A stretch of 64,000 bases of DNA from Leucoraja ocellata (Eukaryota), in the NCBI GenBank assembly GCA_036785375.1, contig JAWMAR010000276.1, positions 992,001 to 1,056,000 of the forward strand, written 5' to 3'. How positions within the stretch are numbered: position 1 is the first letter of the stretch; each line of letters starts with the position of its first letter. The notes below the pieces were generated by a model. It made no database searches. It saw only the letters and a program-made list of their open reading frames with translations, and had not been told where the DNA came from. The translations under genes were made by a program, and so were the position numbers. Positions 857 through 35,100 of the stretch are shown piece after piece.

Positions 857-3039
857 AGTCTGGTAGATTTTTTGGTATAGGCTGGTATATGAAGGAATGT
901 TATAAGCTAGTGGGCACCTGCTCCTCTCCTGGGCATTAGCTGCTTGGTTTGTTTTCCCATGTTGTTCATGAAGAATTACTGTAAATTAACTGATCACCAA
1001 GCCCCACATTTGGGAAATCAACAAAAGGACTGCACCAGTCACGTGAACTCAATCCTAAAGACGACAGGAGACCAGAACTATTGCTGACTGGCACATGGTC
1101 TCAAGGGTCAATCATGGGCTGGATTTTGAAGCAACGAGAGAACTAACATCCTTCTCCACTCACCTAGATTCCACAAAGACCTACAGCTACCCACAAGGAC
1201 CTGGCAATCTCTGTAGTTTGGGTTTATTTTCCGAACATTGGTCACTGACGAGATTCAATTTGAAAAGATCTCTAGTTTTCAACAATGGCGATGTTATTAA
1301 AAAAAACAGAGAACTAATCTCACTGAAGAATGTCCATAGTCAGAAAATCAGGATGTAACAAGCACAATTTTAATGAAACATCCTAAAGAGCACAAATTAA
1401 AGAATTTAAGAAAAGAGCTGTAATTTCATAGTTGAGACGTTCAAATAATTATTTTGGAAATATTTTCTGAATGAATATCAATTGACACATACATTTTTAT
1501 GGCCATGGCCAGAAAGGCTATTTCGCAGAAAAATATGACTTTGTATGCACATTAATAATAGTTAGAATGCCACCTTGCAACAGTCCGTCACTTTCAGATG
1601 GTTTTCTTCACCAAGAATAATTCCTAAGTACCCTTGGTTCTGTTTTCATCAAAGAACACAATGGAGATGGTCACAAAATAGATAACACTGCAGAGGAGCA
1701 TGGAGTTACTAACTACATTTTCCTGTCTACAATAACACGCATGGTCATTATCGGGTTTCCTACAAGATCAGCACAGAAAGCTTTACTTATTGTCATTGAC
1801 TGTACGTCTGACCTCTTTCTAACTCAGAATCTTATTCGAATTTGACAGCATAAATTGGGGAAAGATGAGGGTGAGAATGGAATTATTCGGACTAACATAC
1901 AATCATTGTTTTTAGCACCAATTCCAGCAATTATGAGAAGATAAAGAGCTTGATATTTGTGCTGACACTAAAATTCCTCTGATCTGTCTTTCAAAATATA
2001 TCTTCTGCTTCATGACATTGTTAACTGTGTTTCTCTAGTTGTGGACACAGGAAAGGTAACCACGAGTTTGCTTCATAACCCTAGTAGGTTATGACTAGCC
2101 ACCTAAAATAAGGAATGTTAATGAAACCGATTAAAGATAAAGGTATTTATTAATATATACAGGTATATATATATATATTTGCTGAAATTATGGTTGTTCA
2201 ATTTATTAAGATTTGATTAGTGACTATGATCTCAACTGTCATAATTATGTTTTACTTTAAAAAACATTTCTAATATTGGATAAGACATGGTTTTAAACTA
2301 CCACATAAATCTTAAGTAATAAATTACATTTTTTATTTATTTCCTTATGTAGGAAACTAAACTAAATATTTTGGAAAATCAGTTTCATTTTGTTCAATTT
2401 CTTTATCTCCCTCTCTTTGTGTATGGTAGGAACTGAAAACTTATTCTAAAGTGATTTTATCTTTCATCATCAGCCCAACATTGTAATGTCTTTCATTCAC
2501 TTGGAATTGTTTTGGAAAACTTACAATGATAAAAAGTTGCTGTATAAACTACACCTTCTGGTTGTCATCTGCATCATCACCTTAGCCACCAGATTCTCTC
2601 GATTAAACCACAATTCTCTGGCACACTGCGGCGCTCAGATCACCATCTCACCTTATTGGAGTACATGTGGCGCCTGTGATTCTGCTGCAAGAAAGATTTT
2701 CACTGCAGCTGCACCTCACTGTACTTGTGCAAATGACATTAAACCTGACTTGACAATCTCTTCAAGGTCTTAGGTTGACCTGTCTAGTCATTCACAGTCG
2801 GTCACCAATGCTTCAGGTCGATTTTATGTAAATATGATGAGCTACAGATGCAATGAAAATCTCTGCTTGCAGCAGCATACACCAAAATATGAATTGTATA
2901 TAAATTACACATAAATGCCACAGGACAGCAAAAAGAATGATTGTAAAAATCGAGCCATTGGTTCAATCACGTGGAAGATAAGTCCATGGTAGTGCAAGAA
3001 GTGGTCCTTAGTGATCCTTCGCTGAGGTAGGATTAGAGT

Positions 3040-3449
3040 CAGAAGGTCATGACACAACCCTCCCCCTCCTTCCCCCTTAAACCCTTCTTTTTTCCCTCTC
3101 CCCTTCTCCCCTGTGCTCCACCTGGATCTGCACTTATTTCTCCCCTCCTCCTCCCCATCAACTTACATTCTTTCTTCTAGCTTCATAATTCGCAACTCTT
3201 CAATCCTTTTGTCTCACACCTTCTGTCATTCCATCTCTGGCCTTTGTCCACCCATCTGCCTATCAAATAACTCTCCTCATCAGTGTTGGCCTATTACCTG
3301 TCAAGCTTTTTCCTGCCACTCCTCTCTTCCAGCTTTCTTCCCCTAACCCCTTCTTACAATCAGTCTGATGAAGGATCCTGACCTGAAATCCATGTTCTCC
3401 TGAGATGCTGCCTGACCCGCTGAGCTACTCTAGCACACTGTGTCTTCTC
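3040..3449 (+). mobile_element. Penelope-derived terminal fragment inserted in an older LINE remnant
   Basis: Pyrimidine-rich tract, then CTGATGA...GAAA and the gagatgctgcctgacccgctgag module; flanked by taggattagagt (3028-3039) and tagtattagagt (3450-3461). Confidence 0.6.
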
Positions 3450-4344
3450 TAGTATTAGAGTTATACAGTTCACTTCAAGAACCTGATGGTTGTAGTAAAG
3501 GAGCTGTCTCTGAACCTATGGTGAGGGATTTTTGTGTAAATCACAAACCAAAGAAAATTATCTGTCAGCTGATAGTCGTGCTTCAGTGAAAGCACCCCTA
3601 CCACTTAGTCAAAACAAGTCCCCCTTTGGAGATGTGACTGTATATAGTTTGCTGACATTCCAGTGCACTGCTGAGGGCTGCATCGTTCAAGGAGTCAACT
3701 TTTGAATAAAATGCTTAACCAAGCTGACCTTTGCCCTCTATAGAAGGACATTATCTATGGTCCATGCTCAAAGGAGATACTCTTTGGTCTTGGTCAACAA
3801 TCAATACTGCTAAATAAAATTATTATTAGGCCATATATCTCAAGGCTATTGGCTGACATTACTGTGTGAAAATTAAGTGGCATTAGTCCCTAAAAGGAGA
3901 GACTTCTATTTATATGGTGTCTTTCTTGACCTCAGGAGATAAAACAAAAATACATTGCATGTTCCAAATAGTTTACAGTTACAGTACTGTTATAGTGCAA
4001 CAAGCACAGCAGTTAAATCGTTACACAAGGCCCACAATGAGCAATGTGTTAATGACAAGGTAATGTTGATGCATGGACAATTCTAGGCCAGACCAGGAGA
4101 GATAATTACCTTGCTCTTTGTGAGGCTGCCATAGGATCTTTAATAATATGGAAAAGATAGCCCACACTTCCTCGTTACTGCACTGCAGTGTTTGACAAGA
4201 TTCAATTGTCAAATATTGCTGAGAAATAAAGAGTCATAGAGAGCTACACCATGGAAACAAGCCCAACAGCTAATTGAGTCAGCACCTACCATCAACCGCC
4301 CATTTACCCTAATCCTATATGAATCCCATTTTTATCCACCATAC

Positions 4345-4560
4345 AAGTCAAGTCAAGTCACATTTAATTATATAGCACATTTAAAAAACAACTCTCGTTG
4401 GCCAAAGTGCTTTACATTTGTTATAAGAATAGCACAACAAAACAAACTACATACATATATACATGTAGCCCTCACTCAGAGGACGTCAGGAAAGGCTTGG
4501 GAGTATAGATAAGTCTTTAGTCTTGACTTAAAAGAGTCGATGGAGGGGCAATTCTGATGG
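4345..4560 (-). mobile_element. L2-like LINE 3' end
   Basis: (aagtc)n tail followed by tatatagcacattt...aaagtgctttaca, the typical reverse-strand L2 3' terminus. Confidence 0.55.
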
Positions 4561-4984
4561 GATCTCTGATCATCTCCCCCTGTGATTCTATCAATCCCCT
4601 AGACACCAGGAACAATTTACAGTGGCCAGTTAACTTCAATTAAAAGGAAATGCTGCAAATATTTAGCAGGTTTCATGGAATCTATAGGCAGTAAAAGACA
4701 GTTAATCGTCCTAGAATAATATAGCACAGAAACAAGCCCTTCAGCACAGCTCGAATGTTCCAAGTTGAAAAATTTAATGCAAGGTCATTAACATGAAATA
4801 TTAACTGTTTCACTCCACATTGAAGTTGCCTGCCATGTGGAATATTTCCAGTATATTCATTTTCACCATGCCAGATTAACATGATGTAATTTCTGGAGTG
4901 GAATTGAATATGTAAATTCCTGCCTCAGGGGCGCCACCAACTGAGTCACAGCTGACATTGCATGTCAATTGCACTAAGTTCAAC

Positions 4985-5225
4985 AGAGACACAAGGAACC
5001 GCAGATGCTGGAATCTTGAGTAAAACACAAAGTACTCGAGTAATGCAGCAGGCTAGGCAGCATCTGTGGAGGGAATGGATAAGTAATATTTCAGATTGTG
5101 ATCCTTCTTCAGATCCAATCTTCTTCAGACTGGGTCTGAAGAAGGGTCCCGACCCGAAATGTTACCTATCCATTCCCTCCTCAGAAGCTGCCTGATCCGC
5201 AGGGTTATTCCAGCGCTTTGTGCGT
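4985..5225. mobile_element. Head-to-head inverted pair of Penelope-derived short repeats
   Basis: Minus copy about 4985-5130 and plus copy about 5131-5225, meeting at tcttcagac tgg gtctgaaga. Confidence 0.7.
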
Positions 5226-6983
5226 TACATTCAGTTTGGTCGTCAGTTCAAGATCTCTCACTGTTCGAGAGTCCAATCCAAGCTCACACTCATAATGATC
5301 TGTTTGAAAACTTGCCAAGCCGTGTCTCAGTTTTCAAGATCATTGTTCATTCTTCAGTCATCAGGGCAGGACAGCCACAAACACTTGCTTTGCATCAATA
5401 ATCAAAGCACAAGGTCATTACCAAATTACCAAGGCAACAAAGTATGAACAATCTTTGAGGATTAATCTCCAGAAATTGGCTTTATTTTCACCGCAGAAAT
5501 ATTAACGAGGTGGTGAGAAAAAATATTTTGACCAGCAAGCAACATAGCTTATTCTGCCTGGTATAAAAGCAGAACATTCTAAAAAATACTCAGCTGGCCA
5601 AGCAATGTCTGTCGAAAGAGAAATACTTAAAGTTTCAGGTCTGAGATCCTTCATGAAAAATGTTCCCTATGTCCCCAGAGAGGCTGCCTGACCTGCAAAG
5701 TGGTTCTTGAATTTTGTTTTTATTTCCGATTTCCAGCATCTCCAGTTGTTTGATGTTCGTTATTGTGATGGGCATTCACAGACATGATTGTAACTTGTGA
5801 ACATAAAGAGTATGTCCATTCGATACCTCAGCAGTATTTCTCTTCCTTCCCATTAACACAGAGAGTGACTGTACTTTGGAACAGTTTACCACATGGTGCA
5901 TGAAAACTAATCTCCCTGCAGTTCTTCAAAAGGGAACTGGACAAATTCTTAAGAAGTTTAAAGAAAATTAAAAATACTGATTCCGGACATCTGAAATAAA
6001 AGCTGAAAACATTGGAAATACTGAATAGGTCAGGCATCACAGTGCTGCAAGGTCTGATGAGTATTTCCAGCATTTTCTTATTTTTATTTCAAATTAAAAA
6101 AAAATAATAATTAATTTGGTAGATTAGAAAGTAACTAGAAACAGTGAGTTGGTGATGGATATCCTTTTAATGTGCACTGCCACCTGCTTCACTAATAAGG
6201 AGCCCAAAGAAGGGTCTCGACCCGCAACGTCACCTATCCATGTTCACCAGAGATGCTGCCTGACCTGCTGAGTTACTCCAGCAATTTGTGTCCACAGGAT
6301 TATCAGTTTGCTGGAGTTCATTTACATTCTTGTAATTCATTGTGGTTATCTACCAGTTTGCTGCCTTACCTTTGTCTGGCATCATGTCGATTCTCACCTA
6401 CTGATCTTCTTGGAATCATGTATTGATACATTACAATGCAATGAGTAGGATTCCCTACTTTATTGTGTTTGTTTAGACACTGGCAGATAAAGTCACCACT
6501 GATCCACAGGATCCACAAGCTCCGATGACAGAAATGGTCAATTAGGTTGAATACTGGGGCCTACCATAAACCTTAAATATTTAACACTGCTTTATACGTC
6601 CAAAACCAAGGTACAAATGTCACCTGTCCATTGGCCCCTAACTAATATTCTACTGCCAGTTTACAACAAAGATTCAAATATATTTTACACCAATGTTATA
6701 ACATTGCTGCACAAGGGCATTGACCTTACCAATGCAGAATATACCCAACAATTTGAAAATATGTTGAAAGTAACTTTAAGTGAATCAGATAATTCAAATG
6801 TGGACAGCTCCAAAATCATAATAAACAAATTCCATGACCACTTTATGGTACATTGCCAATATATCAGCTGAAATGTCTCCAGAGTCAGAAATATTTGCAA
6901 TCCTTTGGTAAAAAAAATCCTTCTCATCCTCTTATTTTGAGAGTGTGACTACATTTCTGGACACCCCAGCCAGGGAAAATATC

Positions 6984-27700: not shown

Positions 27701-28000
27701 ACTACCACAGAACTACCCTCTGCCACAGAGGGTAGTTGAGGCCAGTTCATTGGCTATATTTAAGAGGGAGTTAGATGTGGCCCTTGTGGCTAAGGGGATC
27801 AGGGGGTATGGAGAGAAGGCAGGTACGGGATACTGAGTTGGATGATCAGCCATGATCATATTAAATGGCGGTGCAGGCTTGAAGGGCCGAATGGCCTACT
27901 CCTGCACCTAATTTCTATGTTTCTAAGAGAACTACAAAAGGACCAACATGAGATTCAGGGTTGATGTTTTACCTTGATGCCCAGTTCTCGCGTGGATATT

Positions 28001-28052
28001 GGGGTCAAGGAAAGAGCGTTCACGTTGCGGCCCTGTTTCCACTAATCTTTCC
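28001..28052 (+). ncRNA. Predicted minimal HDV-like self-cleaving ribozyme
   Basis: P1 GGGGTC/GGCCCT (G1-U), P2 GGAAAGA/TCTTTCC, P3 GCG/TGC, L3 TTCACGT, short P4, J4/2 CTAA. Confidence 0.75.
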
Positions 28053-28156
28053 ACCACCAAGCACAAGAAGCGCAAGACAGACACCATTGCAAGCAGATGC
28101 CGAGAAGTGTGTTCAGCTCTGGCTGAACAACTTGTGTGTGGACTCGACAAAAAGAA
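28001..28156 (+). mobile_element. Mini-retroposon family B with intact HDV-like ribozyme head
   Basis: TSD gcgtggatatt (27990-28000) and gcgtgaatatt (28157-28167); A/AAG tail; homologous to 34153-34308. Confidence 0.85.
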
Positions 28157-28175
28157 GCGTGAATATTCTTCAGAC

Positions 28176-28270
28176 TGTCTGAAGAAAGGTCTCGACCCGA
28201 AACGTCACCTATTCCTTTTCTCCAGAGATGCTGTCTGACCTGGTGAGTTACTCCAGTATTTTGTGTCTAT
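28176..28270 (+). mobile_element. Penelope-derived short repeat with hammerhead-like core
   Basis: gt-CTGAAGA-aaggtctcgaccc-GAAACGTC-ac followed by the common terminal module. Confidence 0.7.
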
Positions 28271-29584
28271 CCAAGGGATGTTGGCTCTACCGTCTTTAAA
28301 GTGAAATGAATAATCTTGGAGATAAGAACTATTGTCCCAACCAATGTTACAACCAGCACCACAAGAAGCACTGAAAAGCACAAGGTATCAGTTCATCTGG
28401 AGGCGGAAATGGCCGGTGGATGAAACTATAGGTAGACAGTGCTCAATGGTGATAAGTTATGAAGCTATTAGAAATTCTTGTCTTAAGTTCACGATTTTAC
28501 ATAAATAAGTTTGACTGACTTGAACTTTCTCCTCACAGCAGCTCGCACCGACTTCAATGCTAAAGCTGTCTGGATGGTTTGCTCTGCACTTGCTCTGTGA
28601 GACTAGACTCTCGGAGACTAGTGCAGAGACTCGGCTCACTCAATATGGCATTTCCATACCTTTCCATATGTGGCACCCTTCAGCCTGTGCAGGTACAGGA
28701 TACTGAGTTGGATGATCAGCCATGATCATATTGAATGGCGGTGCAGGCTCGAAGGGCCGAATTGGCCTACTCCAGCACCTATTTTCTATGTTTCTATCTG
28801 GTTACATTTTCAATTCTAGTTTACATATATATAGATACAAAATCTCCTTGTCTTGTCTCCTTCCTCACAAAAAAAACATGGTTGAATATCACAAAACTAT
28901 GTATAATTGTGGACAGTGATCCTTTTGCTGTTGTTGTTTTGTTTAAAGAACTCTGGCATTTTTACGACTTTAAAAGCTTAGACTGCACCGCTTGTAAACT
29001 GGTTGAATATTGTACCTTGTTCCATCACAGATGCACGAGGAAACCATAATGTTGGAATTTCCAGGCATCAGTGGTGGACTAAATGAATTTAAAAGAGGAA
29101 ACCTGATTTTCAAATCCTTTAAGCCTAATAAACCAGCCTAAAAACAAGTAAAATGAGATTTGAAAGGCTAAATTGAATGGTCCACATCAGCAGATTAAAA
29201 ATAAATGATGGAGAATCTGGGCTACCACTTTGTGGGCTGATCTTACTGCCAGCATCTATAATCTAATATTGGGCTGCATCTCTTAGAGTGGGTATATATT
29301 TTTATTGGCAGGCAGTGGTTGGCAAATATTCTGTCACTCAATCACATTTGGGTGATATTAAAGTTTGGCACTGTACAGGAAAAGGAGATGCTCCAAGCTT
29401 TTCAGATAGTTGGCTGCAGACTTTTTGAGAAGGAGTTAAAGAGGTTAAGGCTATGATTTATATGCAGGGGATCAGGAGGCCTTACAGATAAGTTCATAGG
29501 GCAGGAGTGAGTGATAACTCCGGTGGTAAGTGCCCTCAGAATGTAGAGACAGTGTGGCAAAATATTTTAGTGGCCACACACATA

Positions 29585-32197: not shown

Positions 32198-35100
32198 CTG
32201 CAAGAAGAAAAGGCATAACAAAAAACAAATATTAGATTGAGTATCATATCCAACATTACTGCTGAAGTCCAACAGCTCAATTCATGCAATTCTCACTTTA
32301 AAAAAAAGAAAATAACCCTTTGTTCGTGAACAGAGCAAAACAACTTCCTGAATTTGGTCAATTTCTGTTAATTCTATCTGTAAAGTAGGAGCTTTCACAA
32401 GGATGCTAAGAAAGCAAACATTTAGAGTGCTTGCTACTCAATTCTACATAATGGTTCATTCTATCCATATTTCTGTACCATTAAATTAAAATGACGCGAA
32501 GAATTAAGCAATAATTAATGATTCCTGGAATAAATCTGTCATCAATTAATTAAACAAGCCAACCCAATTTTCTAGATTTTCCCAATTGTCCCCTGAAGCA
32601 ACAAGGCATGTCTTATTTAGATGAAAAAGAGATATGGGTACTGGAGTTTCAGAACTGCCAATCAACGTGAAAAATATACATCTTCTAGATGCGCTGGGAT
32701 GCATCCTCAGTGATGTGACCTGGGGTCATCGGGTGTTTCAGGTCTCACAACATCAGACATCCTCGCCCAGGTGACCCAGCCGGGGTTTATCAGCATGCGT
32801 CCCAGCAGCAACCGCCCACGGATCTGCCATCTTAATAACTACTCTGCAGGGGTTGGGAGACTCTAGTGTGTGGAGGGACTGGACTCTATGGAGTGAGTTC
32901 TGGCCGGGCTCCTCCTGCGTCTCATCAGGTTCAAGGCCTGTGCGCTGCACCTCTTTCTCCTTCTCCGAGCATTTCATTCTTGCCTGATGGATTTTTAGGC
33001 CATGGTGGTTCATTAGGCCTTTCCGTAGCTTTATTGGGTGCCTTTCTTACGAACGACGCAGTCTGGGGTGCTAAGCCAGCCTTTCCCGGGTGCCGTCTAT
33101 CCGTGCCGTCAACTGTCTCTCCAGTAGTCTACAAGTACAAGCTGGTCTAAACTCATTTTTTTTAATCTCACTTTCCTTCCTCGTTGCTCCTTATCACCTT
33201 CCCATGTAAACTTTACAGAAACAGGTCAGCAACAAAATGAAAGAGCATTTGTTAGTGCTGATAGGGAGAGGCTTGGGTGCATAAGGGAATATCACCAAAC
33301 TTCAACTCAAAAAGCATACAACACACTTATCATGAAATGTAACGGGATATGACACTACAAGCAGGCCTATTTTCCTGCAATGTCAATTTGAGATTGGCAA
33401 TCGGGATTTCCCAGTAAAGTCCATACCTTGCAATGCTAACCTGAGACCAGCAATAAATGAGACTTTGCCAAGGAAGTTCAGATCCCAGGAACATTTTTTT
33501 TTTTAAACATGCAAACTTCTCTATACAGGTGAGAACGAAACAACCAGAAACTGTAAAGTGGATGCACATTACTTACATATTTATGAATTATGCTTTTAAA
33601 TGTACACAAAACTAATATTCATTTTCTTTGTGCCTTTCAAATGACATTGGAGGGAAGTACATTACACTGAAAGGGGCAGGGAGGGATTTTGGCAGCAGGC
33701 TTTACACAGTGACGCCGATGGAGAGAATGCAAGGAAAAATACCTCAAATAATTTAACATTTTAAATTAGCTGGGCTCAAAGCTTCACAACTGATTTCCCC
33801 CCCCCTATCATTCTGCCCACAAAGTGGAGATGGTTGTAGTGATGAGAGTTTTAACAATGAAAACACTGATGTTGTGCAACTGGCATTTGTTGGCTGCAAG
33901 GTCAGATTGGAATATGTGGCATAGCTAATAACAGTTCCTTGTGTCTACATAATAGCAACTGTACCAAGTTCCAATTCAGGATGACTGCATTTTTATTTGA
34001 GAGCATTTGGAACTCTTATTGAAACGATGTAGAAGCAAAGTTTGAATATTTCCAAGGCAGAAGTGGTTAGATATTTGATAAACAAGGGAAAAGCAGCCAC
34101 TGATATAGAAATGAGGTTGCAATCAGATTAGTGTGATCTTATTTAATGGAGCGGAGTAAAGGAAAGAGCGTTCACGTCGTGGCCCTGTTTCCACCACCCC
34201 GCACAAGAAGCAACAAGACAGACACCATTGTATGCAGATGCCGTGAAGTGTGTCCAGCTCTGGCTGAACAACTTCTAACTTTGTGTGTGGACTCAATAAG
34301 AAGACGACTTAATGGAGCACCAGGCTTCAGTGCTCAAGTAGCTTACTTTTTTTAATTGCCCCATATGAAATAAAAGCATTCAAAAGATGCGAGCCAATTA
34401 CAGAAACTTCTAGGGGGTAAAGTATCCTTTTTGATTTCAGTCCCAACAATTTATCTAATACCATTTTCTGACTAATGTGGATTCCCTTCAGTTCCTTCCT
34501 CCCACTAGACCCTCGGTCCCCTAGTATTTCTGGGAGATTGTTTGTGTCTTCCTTAGTGAAGACAGAACCAAAGTACTTGTTTAACTGGTCTGCCATTTTC
34601 TTGTTTCCCTTATACATTCACCCGTTTCTGACTGTCAGGGACCTACATTTGTCTTCACTAATCTTTTCCTCTTCACATATCTAAAGATTTGGTTTCAAAT
34701 AACACACCCAGCAAATGTTACTGAAGAACCAGCATATGCATAAATGGAAAATAATAGATCCAAAGGCAAAAGTGTAAGTAGGCTTATAAAACATGGAAAC
34801 AGGCCCTTCAGCCTACCCAATGGGGTGGGAGATTGCAAGCTTCACGTGGTCCACACTGTTTCAACGAATGCAATCAACCTGGCGTGAAGATCAAACGGAA
34901 CAAGTTGTCTTACAACTTTAGGCTGTGCGCGCCATGCGCAAGAAGAAGCCTACCAAATCCATGCTGAACATCAAACACCCACTAATTCTAACCTAACAGC
35001 AATCCCCAAATTTCCATCAACTTCCCCATCTAGACAGTAGGGTCAATTGATAGTGATCAATTAATCTACCAACCTGCAGGTCTTTGGGATGAGAGAGGAG

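Follow-up and report, generated by a model that had tools for sequence, protein, structure and literature searches.

The question raised by positions 28001-28156 of the window (the whole 64-kb stretch of DNA analyzed here) is what kind of element begins with a 52-nt HDV-like fold, whether this fold is a self-cleaving ribozyme, and where it came from. Sequence comparison within the same genome identified the segment as one copy of a ~165-nt non-autonomous retroposon, referred to below as the family-B short element. Our explanation as a whole, which we consider probable, is that a bipartite Vingi-type retroposon with a self-cleaving, P4-less head inserted here and that its copy has since decayed. 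The parts of the locus are given in Table 1.

Table 1. Coordinates of the retroposon copy at 28001-28156, its parts and the second copy in the window
Feature	Position	Strand	Basis
Left target-site duplication (TSD), 11 bp	27990..28000	+	sequence reading, TSD comparison
Right TSD, one mismatch to the left one	28157..28167	+	sequence reading, TSD comparison
P4-less HDV-like ribozyme fold, 52 nt, first part of the element	28001..28052	+	cleavage activity predicted
P1 (28001-06/28029-34, 6 bp), enclosing J1/2 (28007-08), P2 5' strand, P3 and L3	28001..28034	+	
G28035 and 5-nt linker replacing P4	28035..28041	+	sequence parse
J4/2 C-T-A-A with putative catalytic C28042, then P2 3' strand (28046-52)	28042..28052	+	parse, alignment
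Rest of the parent LINE 5' region, ending at ATG	28053..28095	+	alignment to L151
Deletion junction, ATG-x-A microhomology of parent 5' region with ORF end	28091..28095	+	one base altered here
Parent LINE 3' end, ~70 nt: C-terminal part of the ORF, 3' UTR, (GAA)-type tail	28091..28156	+	
Second, damaged copy of the same family, own 12-bp TSD	34153..34305	+	sequence comparison, TSD

The sequence-only reading of this locus had proposed helices P1, P2 and P3, an L3 loop TTCACGT, a catalytic C at 28042 in CTAA and an 11-bp TSD with one mismatch, and all of these are present in the DNA. P1 is paired at 6/6 positions with two wobbles, G1.U as the first pair and U5.G; P2 (28009-15/28046-52) is paired at 7/7, all Watson-Crick, and P3 (28016-18/28026-28) at 3/3 with one G.U (sequence parse). 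Together with the 7-nt L3 (28019-25), P2 and P3 can take the nested pseudoknot arrangement of HDV-like ribozymes. P1 likewise has the HDV-like form, with 6 bp starting with G1.U at the predicted cleavage site, and a P1 of 6 or 7 bp is described as usual in this class (PMC4908430). The cut would fall between 28000 and 28001, just 5' of G1, the first base of the element. P4 had been described as reduced to about 6 nt. The helix is wholly missing, and G-T plus 5 bases separate P1 from C28042. For P1.1 the window copy offers a single possible pair, G28035/C28021, next to a U.U (28020/28036); these positions are invariant, hence free of covariation, and the placement is a possible one made by likeness to CPEB3. 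C28042 is invariant in a 10-row alignment of heads and is a C in 51/53 aligned family-B copies, and because CTAA is also found in the sister family C the catalytic position is assigned to C28042 and not to 28043.

This copy had also been called the best preserved of its kind. That description holds within the window, where the copy at 34153 has P1 mismatches and a 12-nt deletion that loses one of two repeated motifs across J4/2-P2, but not genome-wide: the copy at 28001 carries C26>T in P3 (C in 45/53 aligned copies) and C43>T in J4/2 relative to the family, and an 8-nt deletion in its 3' half takes out the stop codon. Neither a relaxed motif scan of the window nor BLAST using other Vingi heads revealed an additional HDV-like family, so the other family implied by the sequence-only reading was not identified. 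The window is rich in repeats, and its long ORFs yielded no recognizable host exon. Other abundant repeat families lie on both sides of the copy (28174-28308 and 27773-27923), and the upstream flank at 27963-27985 is partly complementary to 27999-28020, approximately the first 20 nt of the element, so that a long hairpin is possible; the complementarity may be fortuitous or a target-site effect. The locus (27990-28170) and its flanks recur ~333 kb away on the same contig (C276:1353530) with 97% identity over 3.2 kb. Comparable duplicated pairs recur among the matches and reflect segmental duplication or uncollapsed haplotypes.

We then consider the family as a whole. A first look gave 2,821 candidates in the 3.44-Gb genome, 40 of which were scored, and a 22-nt core had 884 exact matches genome-wide compared to 0 for the reversed control. 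The exact core is found in 9/60 copies chosen by their 3' core, corresponding to ~5,900 copies by rough scaling; from the sequence matches we put the copy number at roughly 3,000-6,000. The 60-copy sample consists of the first 60 short-type rows among 100 of 489 matches, with four near-duplicate pairs kept. In this sample 48/60 copies start no more than 3 nt from G1, 5/60 are headless, and 7/60 pass a test of all helices. Among 41 end-to-end BLAST rows, 24/36 independent copies are flanked by TSDs 8 bp long or longer, as against 9/1,260 mismatched pairs. The duplications of the short-element copies measure 8-14 bp and the flanks are unrelated insertion sites bearing TSDs; the variable length of the TSDs and the GAA tail accord with bipartite non-autonomous LINEs, which have such TSDs and a simple-repeat tail. 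In public contigs, loose ends stack at positions 1503-1505 of locus L009, i.e., at the first base of the element, and one public contig passes over the L009 element, as an empty site would. The whole element or a part was detected in 20/23 listed sequencing runs (five organism labels and one unlabelled row); the other repeats of the genome suggest a cartilaginous fish as host. The base directly 5' of G1 is most often T (23/48 in L287-L346 and 22/36 in L001-L050), which could be a target-site or a cleavage preference. In L021-L050 there is a subfamily in which a 9-10-nt GCACAAGAA unit after the ribozyme is amplified in tandem, giving rise to length variation. A metagenome scan for the ribozyme core gave 78 matches, of which 0/78 passed the P1+P2 test, and they are taken as chance.

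The 53 aligned heads differ by 8.9% on average, and the differences are concentrated at CpG, indicating neutral decay after insertion. Because the copies decay in this manner, a host function of the window copy is most unlikely. The differing flanks, the TSDs and the decay at CpG led us to reject a conserved, CPEB3-like host ribozyme at this locus, and we also rejected the idea that the peptide of the window copy has a protein-coding role.

The proposal that the element joins the 5' and 3' ends of a longer LINE was borne out by the recovery of both ends in longer copies: parent 3' ends share its last ~70 nt, and a 2.8-kb RT-bearing copy has the same head. A negative-letter pattern for the parent gave 73 matches, and among the 30 examined there was no LINE, all being variants of the short element or truncated copies; a P4-type pattern gave 59 matches, of which the 30 examined were heads of several LINE families. 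A codon-based pattern detected 27 LINE-type 3' ends of family B. In the 20 of these 3' ends that were examined, RT or zinc-finger homology lies upstream (ORF homology to the sister family A), and the terminal ~70 nt of the short element is common to the examined ends unless they are truncated or interrupted. Short-type and LINE-type 3' ends number 97 and 3, respectively, among the first 100 of 489 matches, a ratio of about 30:1.

The 5' end of the parent is seen in the 2.8-kb copy L151/L152, which has the same P4-less head at its start, RT remains and the same tail; its head matches the window copy over 74 nt at 90.5% identity. L151 and L152 share 96% identity across 6.5 kb and thus represent one duplicated insertion. 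Among long family-B insertions it is the only independent one found to retain its 5' end, further searches having yielded no other, and the 5'-end origin of the short element is read from this one insertion. A different history would make the short element a genuine SINE whose head arose independently and which captured only a LINE 3' tail, with L151 a chance juxtaposition of a truncated short copy and, downstream of it, a truncated LINE. The single independent long insertion with this head would fit such a history, as would the unrelated repeat that interrupts L151 between its head and RT region. However, L151 departs from the short element after nt ~74 and differs beyond the junction ATG, and a likely TSD spans its whole 2.8 kb. 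In addition, the heads of the sister LINE families are homologous and are directly followed by the endonuclease ORF, and Repbase Vingi 5' ends in the available supplement of PMC5786205 have the same core. A SINE origin is therefore very unlikely. At the level of sequence, the short element is shown to be an internal-deletion derivative comprising the first ~95 nt and the last ~70 nt of a Vingi-type LINE. The loss of P4 and the small size of the head were most likely inherited from the parent LINE rather than produced by the deletion.

The same alignment bears on the peptide encoded in the 3' half, which had been assigned to the extreme C-terminus of an Ingi/Vingi-type ORF. Approximately 13 of its 18 letters do match the end of the parent ORF, and that part of the assignment is retained; the letters TPLQ come from the parent 5' region and, given a junction at 28091-28095, are not ORF-derived. 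The ATG that closes the 5' region may be the start codon of the parent. L151/L152 is without an endonuclease region, and family B yields only RT and a C-terminal zinc finger; a search for the endonuclease with part of protein P0002 found no family-B sequence in the 20 of 150 matches fetched.

The sister families bear on the clade of the parent. The family-A LINE has the compact one-ORF plan of Vingi, with APE endonuclease and RT: it is ~3.1 kb long and has a single ORF with endonuclease (PF14529), RT (PF00078) and a C-terminal zinc-finger-like motif; no RNase H family matched in four family-A ORF pieces. Family B is colinear with family A from RT to the C-terminus, and the family-A tail resembles that of the short element, yet is distinct. 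Database relatives of family A are mostly endonuclease-RT proteins of ~1,000 aa without RNase H, and only distant matches have one. In a 37-row RT tree (three rows of our own and 34 selected from 120 listed proteins, with sea-urchin proteins in the RNase-H-less group and no named Vingi), family B falls among 28 rows lacking RNase H, split from 9 RNase-H-bearing rows with support 100/100. Vingi is defined as being without RNase H, unlike Ingi (PMC13708176, in the part available). By sequence, the parent LINE goes with the RNase-H-less, Vingi-type elements and not with Ingi, so that Vingi is the half of the proposed Ingi/Vingi label that is kept. The label Vingi is used here because of this RNase-H-less architecture and because the Repbase Vingi ends noted above share the core.

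The sister families differ in the form of their heads. Family A (L051, L053, L056, L074-L078, L082-L089; for example L082:235-3360) is young, its copies being 94-98% alike; at least 150 of its 3' ends were scored, and its head is a full P4-bearing HDV-like fold with 61 bits on the CPEB3 model. The family-D heads at L059:1473-1543 (-) and L061:1474-1552 (+) score 57 and 54 bits and are near the CPEB3 consensus including the P4 stem; ~80 nt are common to both loci with no ORF after them, and they are possibly ribozyme-only relics. Families C (L062, L073, L267, L279) and E (L065, L071, L072, L079) have CPEB3-type heads with differing P4 lengths, and family C combines CTAA in J4/2 with a linked endonuclease-RT ORF. 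The 5' ends of the Vingi-type family F were found in L268-L277, L280, L281, L283, L285 and L286. Family F and L284 show a different HDV-like arrangement of P1/P3/L3 with GG for P1.1, in which P2 and the catalytic C are not confidently placed.

Is the family-B head a ribozyme? A strict HDV descriptor had one match in the real window, at 28001, and one in 60 dinucleotide-shuffled windows, so that the match exceeds chance expectation. At the gathering threshold, Rfam gave 0 matches in the 64-kb window. The best match of the window copy at the level of E-values is RF00622 (CPEB3 ribozyme) with 30.4 bits (E 4.5e-4 for the whole window); this score and that of L009 (27.1 bits) lie below the gathering cut-off of 35, and the 5-nt linker of the window copy stands where RF00622 has P4. 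In a comparison of 10 heads from five LINE-head families, pairing reaches 97% in both P2 and P3, and 4/7 P2 pairs show double-sided changes. The lower value for P1, 79%, is due to damage at the 5' ends of several copies of sister families; slid controls gave 42-57%. Three of five measures of head pairing were above all 500 shuffles and two were not (54/500 and 474/500), in a test of 10 related sequences whose kinship inflates it. Compared to the P4-bearing family A, family B has three compensatory P2 changes and one P1 pair fewer, and has lost P4. The order of these events is suggested by a single protein, P0002, from an organism other than the host. Its N-terminal read-through (residues ~27-48), decoded by hand, gives a P4-less head with a 6-bp P1 and an A-type P2, and it adjoins family B in the RT tree (support 92/79). 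If the decoding is right, it suggests that the B-specific P2 changes postdate the loss of P4, arguing for continued selection.

An internal Pol II promoter within the same 52 nt could also give a Vingi deletion derivative its fixed 5' end, the P4-less head being dead or very slow. The first 77 nt of L1Tc (Pr77) are both promoter and ribozyme (PMC3383444; PMC8256844, in their available parts), and a uniform 5' end fits cleavage and a fixed start site alike, so that taken alone it could equally stem from a promoter. The promoter account is also helped by the weak P1.1, the missing P4, the 6-bp P1 and the low folding energy of the family-B head. On the other hand, the three compensatory P2 changes relative to family A would be unneeded by a DNA promoter; the family-B majority (53 aligned copies) retains every pairing together with the catalytic C and the AA, and the order of events decoded from P0002 points in the same direction. 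We regard a promoter without cleavage as unlikely. As for the chemistry, the possible P1.1 would be of the weak type seen in CPEB3 (a single C-G pair beside U.U) and would here have no P4 to stack on, which counts against activity; P4-less HDV-like variants are reported to cleave in vitro (10.1101/2023.06.13.544163, in the part available). Judged from sequence, the family-B head is likely to be catalytically active.

For the window copy in its own context the estimate is lower. Nested-only folding did not recover the native helices, and its energy was no better than that of shuffles (z = +0.90); ViennaRNA cannot score a pseudoknot, and this value is uninformative for a double pseudoknot, yet not support. 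The combined energy of P1 and P3 is -7.9 kcal/mol in the window copy compared to -9.5 in L009, and the alternative MFE is below both. A centroid hairpin predicted at -22.9 kcal/mol in 27960-28022 pairs the upstream flank with the 5' strands of P1 and P2, and a second competing helix is predicted with a leader starting at 27991. Since P1+P3 is weaker than in L009 and the flank is predicted to sequester these strands, the chances of an active and an inactive window copy are about evenly balanced. It may well be, and we put this just short of an even call, that the family head is active and the window copy is inactive in place, its P3 G-C having decayed to G.U through C26>T and its P1/P2 5' strands being captured by the flank. 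All helices of the window copy still pair, however, and the predictions leave out pseudoknots and co-transcriptional folding. An inactive copy is compatible with our explanation and lowers the claim for the window copy only. The transcript previously suggested for a cleavage assay (27960-28070) is predicted to misfold by the same pairing (-23 kcal/mol), and its failure to cleave would therefore not count as evidence that the ribozyme is absent.

We propose the following mechanism for a bipartite retroposon with a self-cleaving head. An internal deletion joined the first ~95 nt of a family-B Vingi-type LINE to its last ~70 nt. Transcription of a copy would come from read-through or start at an internal Pol II promoter. 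The 52-nt head, whose fold is supported by comparison, would form an HDV-like double pseudoknot without P4 and cleave its RNA immediately before G1, C42 acting as the general acid, a role established for C in the HDV-like ribozyme family (PMC13635239, in the part available). The LINE protein, acting in trans, would bind the retained 3' end and insert the RNA by target-primed reverse transcription. The latter is the known route of APE-type LINEs. Inserted copies then decay neutrally, mostly at CpG.

Among known systems, the element is by its sequence a member of the bipartite non-autonomous LINEs, which likewise consist of LINE 5' and 3' ends joined by internal deletion (Vingi-1_EE derivatives, RIME/Ingi, NARTc/L1Tc, and RTE and R2 SIDE derivatives). 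In the available part of PMC5786205, RTE, Ingi, Vingi and R2 are the clades that make such derivatives, usually keeping the 5' end, and six LINE clades with ribozymes are named, Vingi not being one of them. Compared to these elements, the family of the window copy stands out by its small length (~165 nt) and by exceeding its parent in number about 30:1 among the matches listed. The Repbase Vingi 5' ends in the supplement of that paper (Vingi-2_Gav, Vingi-4_Crp, Vingi-2_SPur and Vingi-1_BF) have the same P3/L3 core, G-rich start and P2 logic, with a P4 hairpin and C-G-A-A in contrast to no P4 and C-C/T-A-A in family B; they are not called ribozymes in the part of the supplement available.

The minimal HDV-like ribozymes of gut phages (drz-Mtgn, theta) are P4-less and have the catalytic C first in J4/2, as in family B (10.1101/2023.06.13.544163). 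According to the available text of the same source, they are phage or metagenomic and tRNA-linked, and genome matches were only bacterial though human, mouse and protist genomes were included. Family B differs in having neither a phage location nor a tRNA 3' end at G1, its heads belonging to a vertebrate retroposon. Since family B resembles CPEB3 and Vingi in sequence, the loss of P4 was probably independent of the phage forms. The theta papers were the sole source of P4-less HDV-like forms among the matches listed in our literature search, and no work on Vingi in shark or skate was among them. A Vingi ribozyme is not stated in the available parts of PMC13708176 or PMC5786205, and no work joining CPEB3 and Vingi was found; Repbase and Dfam lay outside this search, and part of the finding may be in print. 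LINE-borne HDV-like ribozymes, bipartite Vingi derivatives and P4-less phage ribozymes are thus known already, but the literature searched contained no case that combines them, with a vertebrate retroposon headed by a P4-less form whose sisters within one genome still have P4. If the heads are active, P4 would be dispensable even with a weak CPEB3-type P1.1, and thousands of potential RNA-cutting sites would be spread across the genome. The finding of Vingi heads also bears on Vingi-based gene-insertion platforms, which keep the native 5' UTR (PMC13708176, in the part available).

The window copy itself is an ordinary, slightly decayed insertion; the interest is at the family level, in the P4-less eukaryotic form and the link to CPEB3. 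The P3/L3 of family B match the CPEB3 consensus (RF00622) except for C26>T in the window copy, and the same G-U follows P1 (weak P1.1). The CPEB3 ribozyme has P4 and a longer P1 and occurs at one conserved intronic locus, whereas family B is a mobile, P4-less, neutrally decaying repeat that scores below the cut-off. The P4-bearing sister heads of the same genome do pass it, 6/6 tested scoring 50.1-61.2 bits, and the CPEB3 consensus matches P4-bearing Vingi heads, including Vingi-2_Gav, along its whole length. The passing scores of these sister heads suggest that the mammalian CPEB3 ribozyme is a relic of a Vingi 5' end. No retroposon origin is given for it in the available parts of PMC8256844 and 10.1101/2022.09.22.508989. 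The full proposal would be that Vingi LINEs have a CPEB3-type HDV ribozyme at the 5' end, that one lineage lost P4 yet stayed active as a 52-nt eukaryotic minimal form in thousands of copies, and that CPEB3 is a domesticated Vingi 5' end; we see it as equally likely to hold or to fail. If it is true, these heads provide a natural series with or without P4 and with a P1 of 6 or 7 bp in which the role of P4 could be examined, and the match between Vingi heads and CPEB3 makes the origin of the mammalian ribozyme directly testable.
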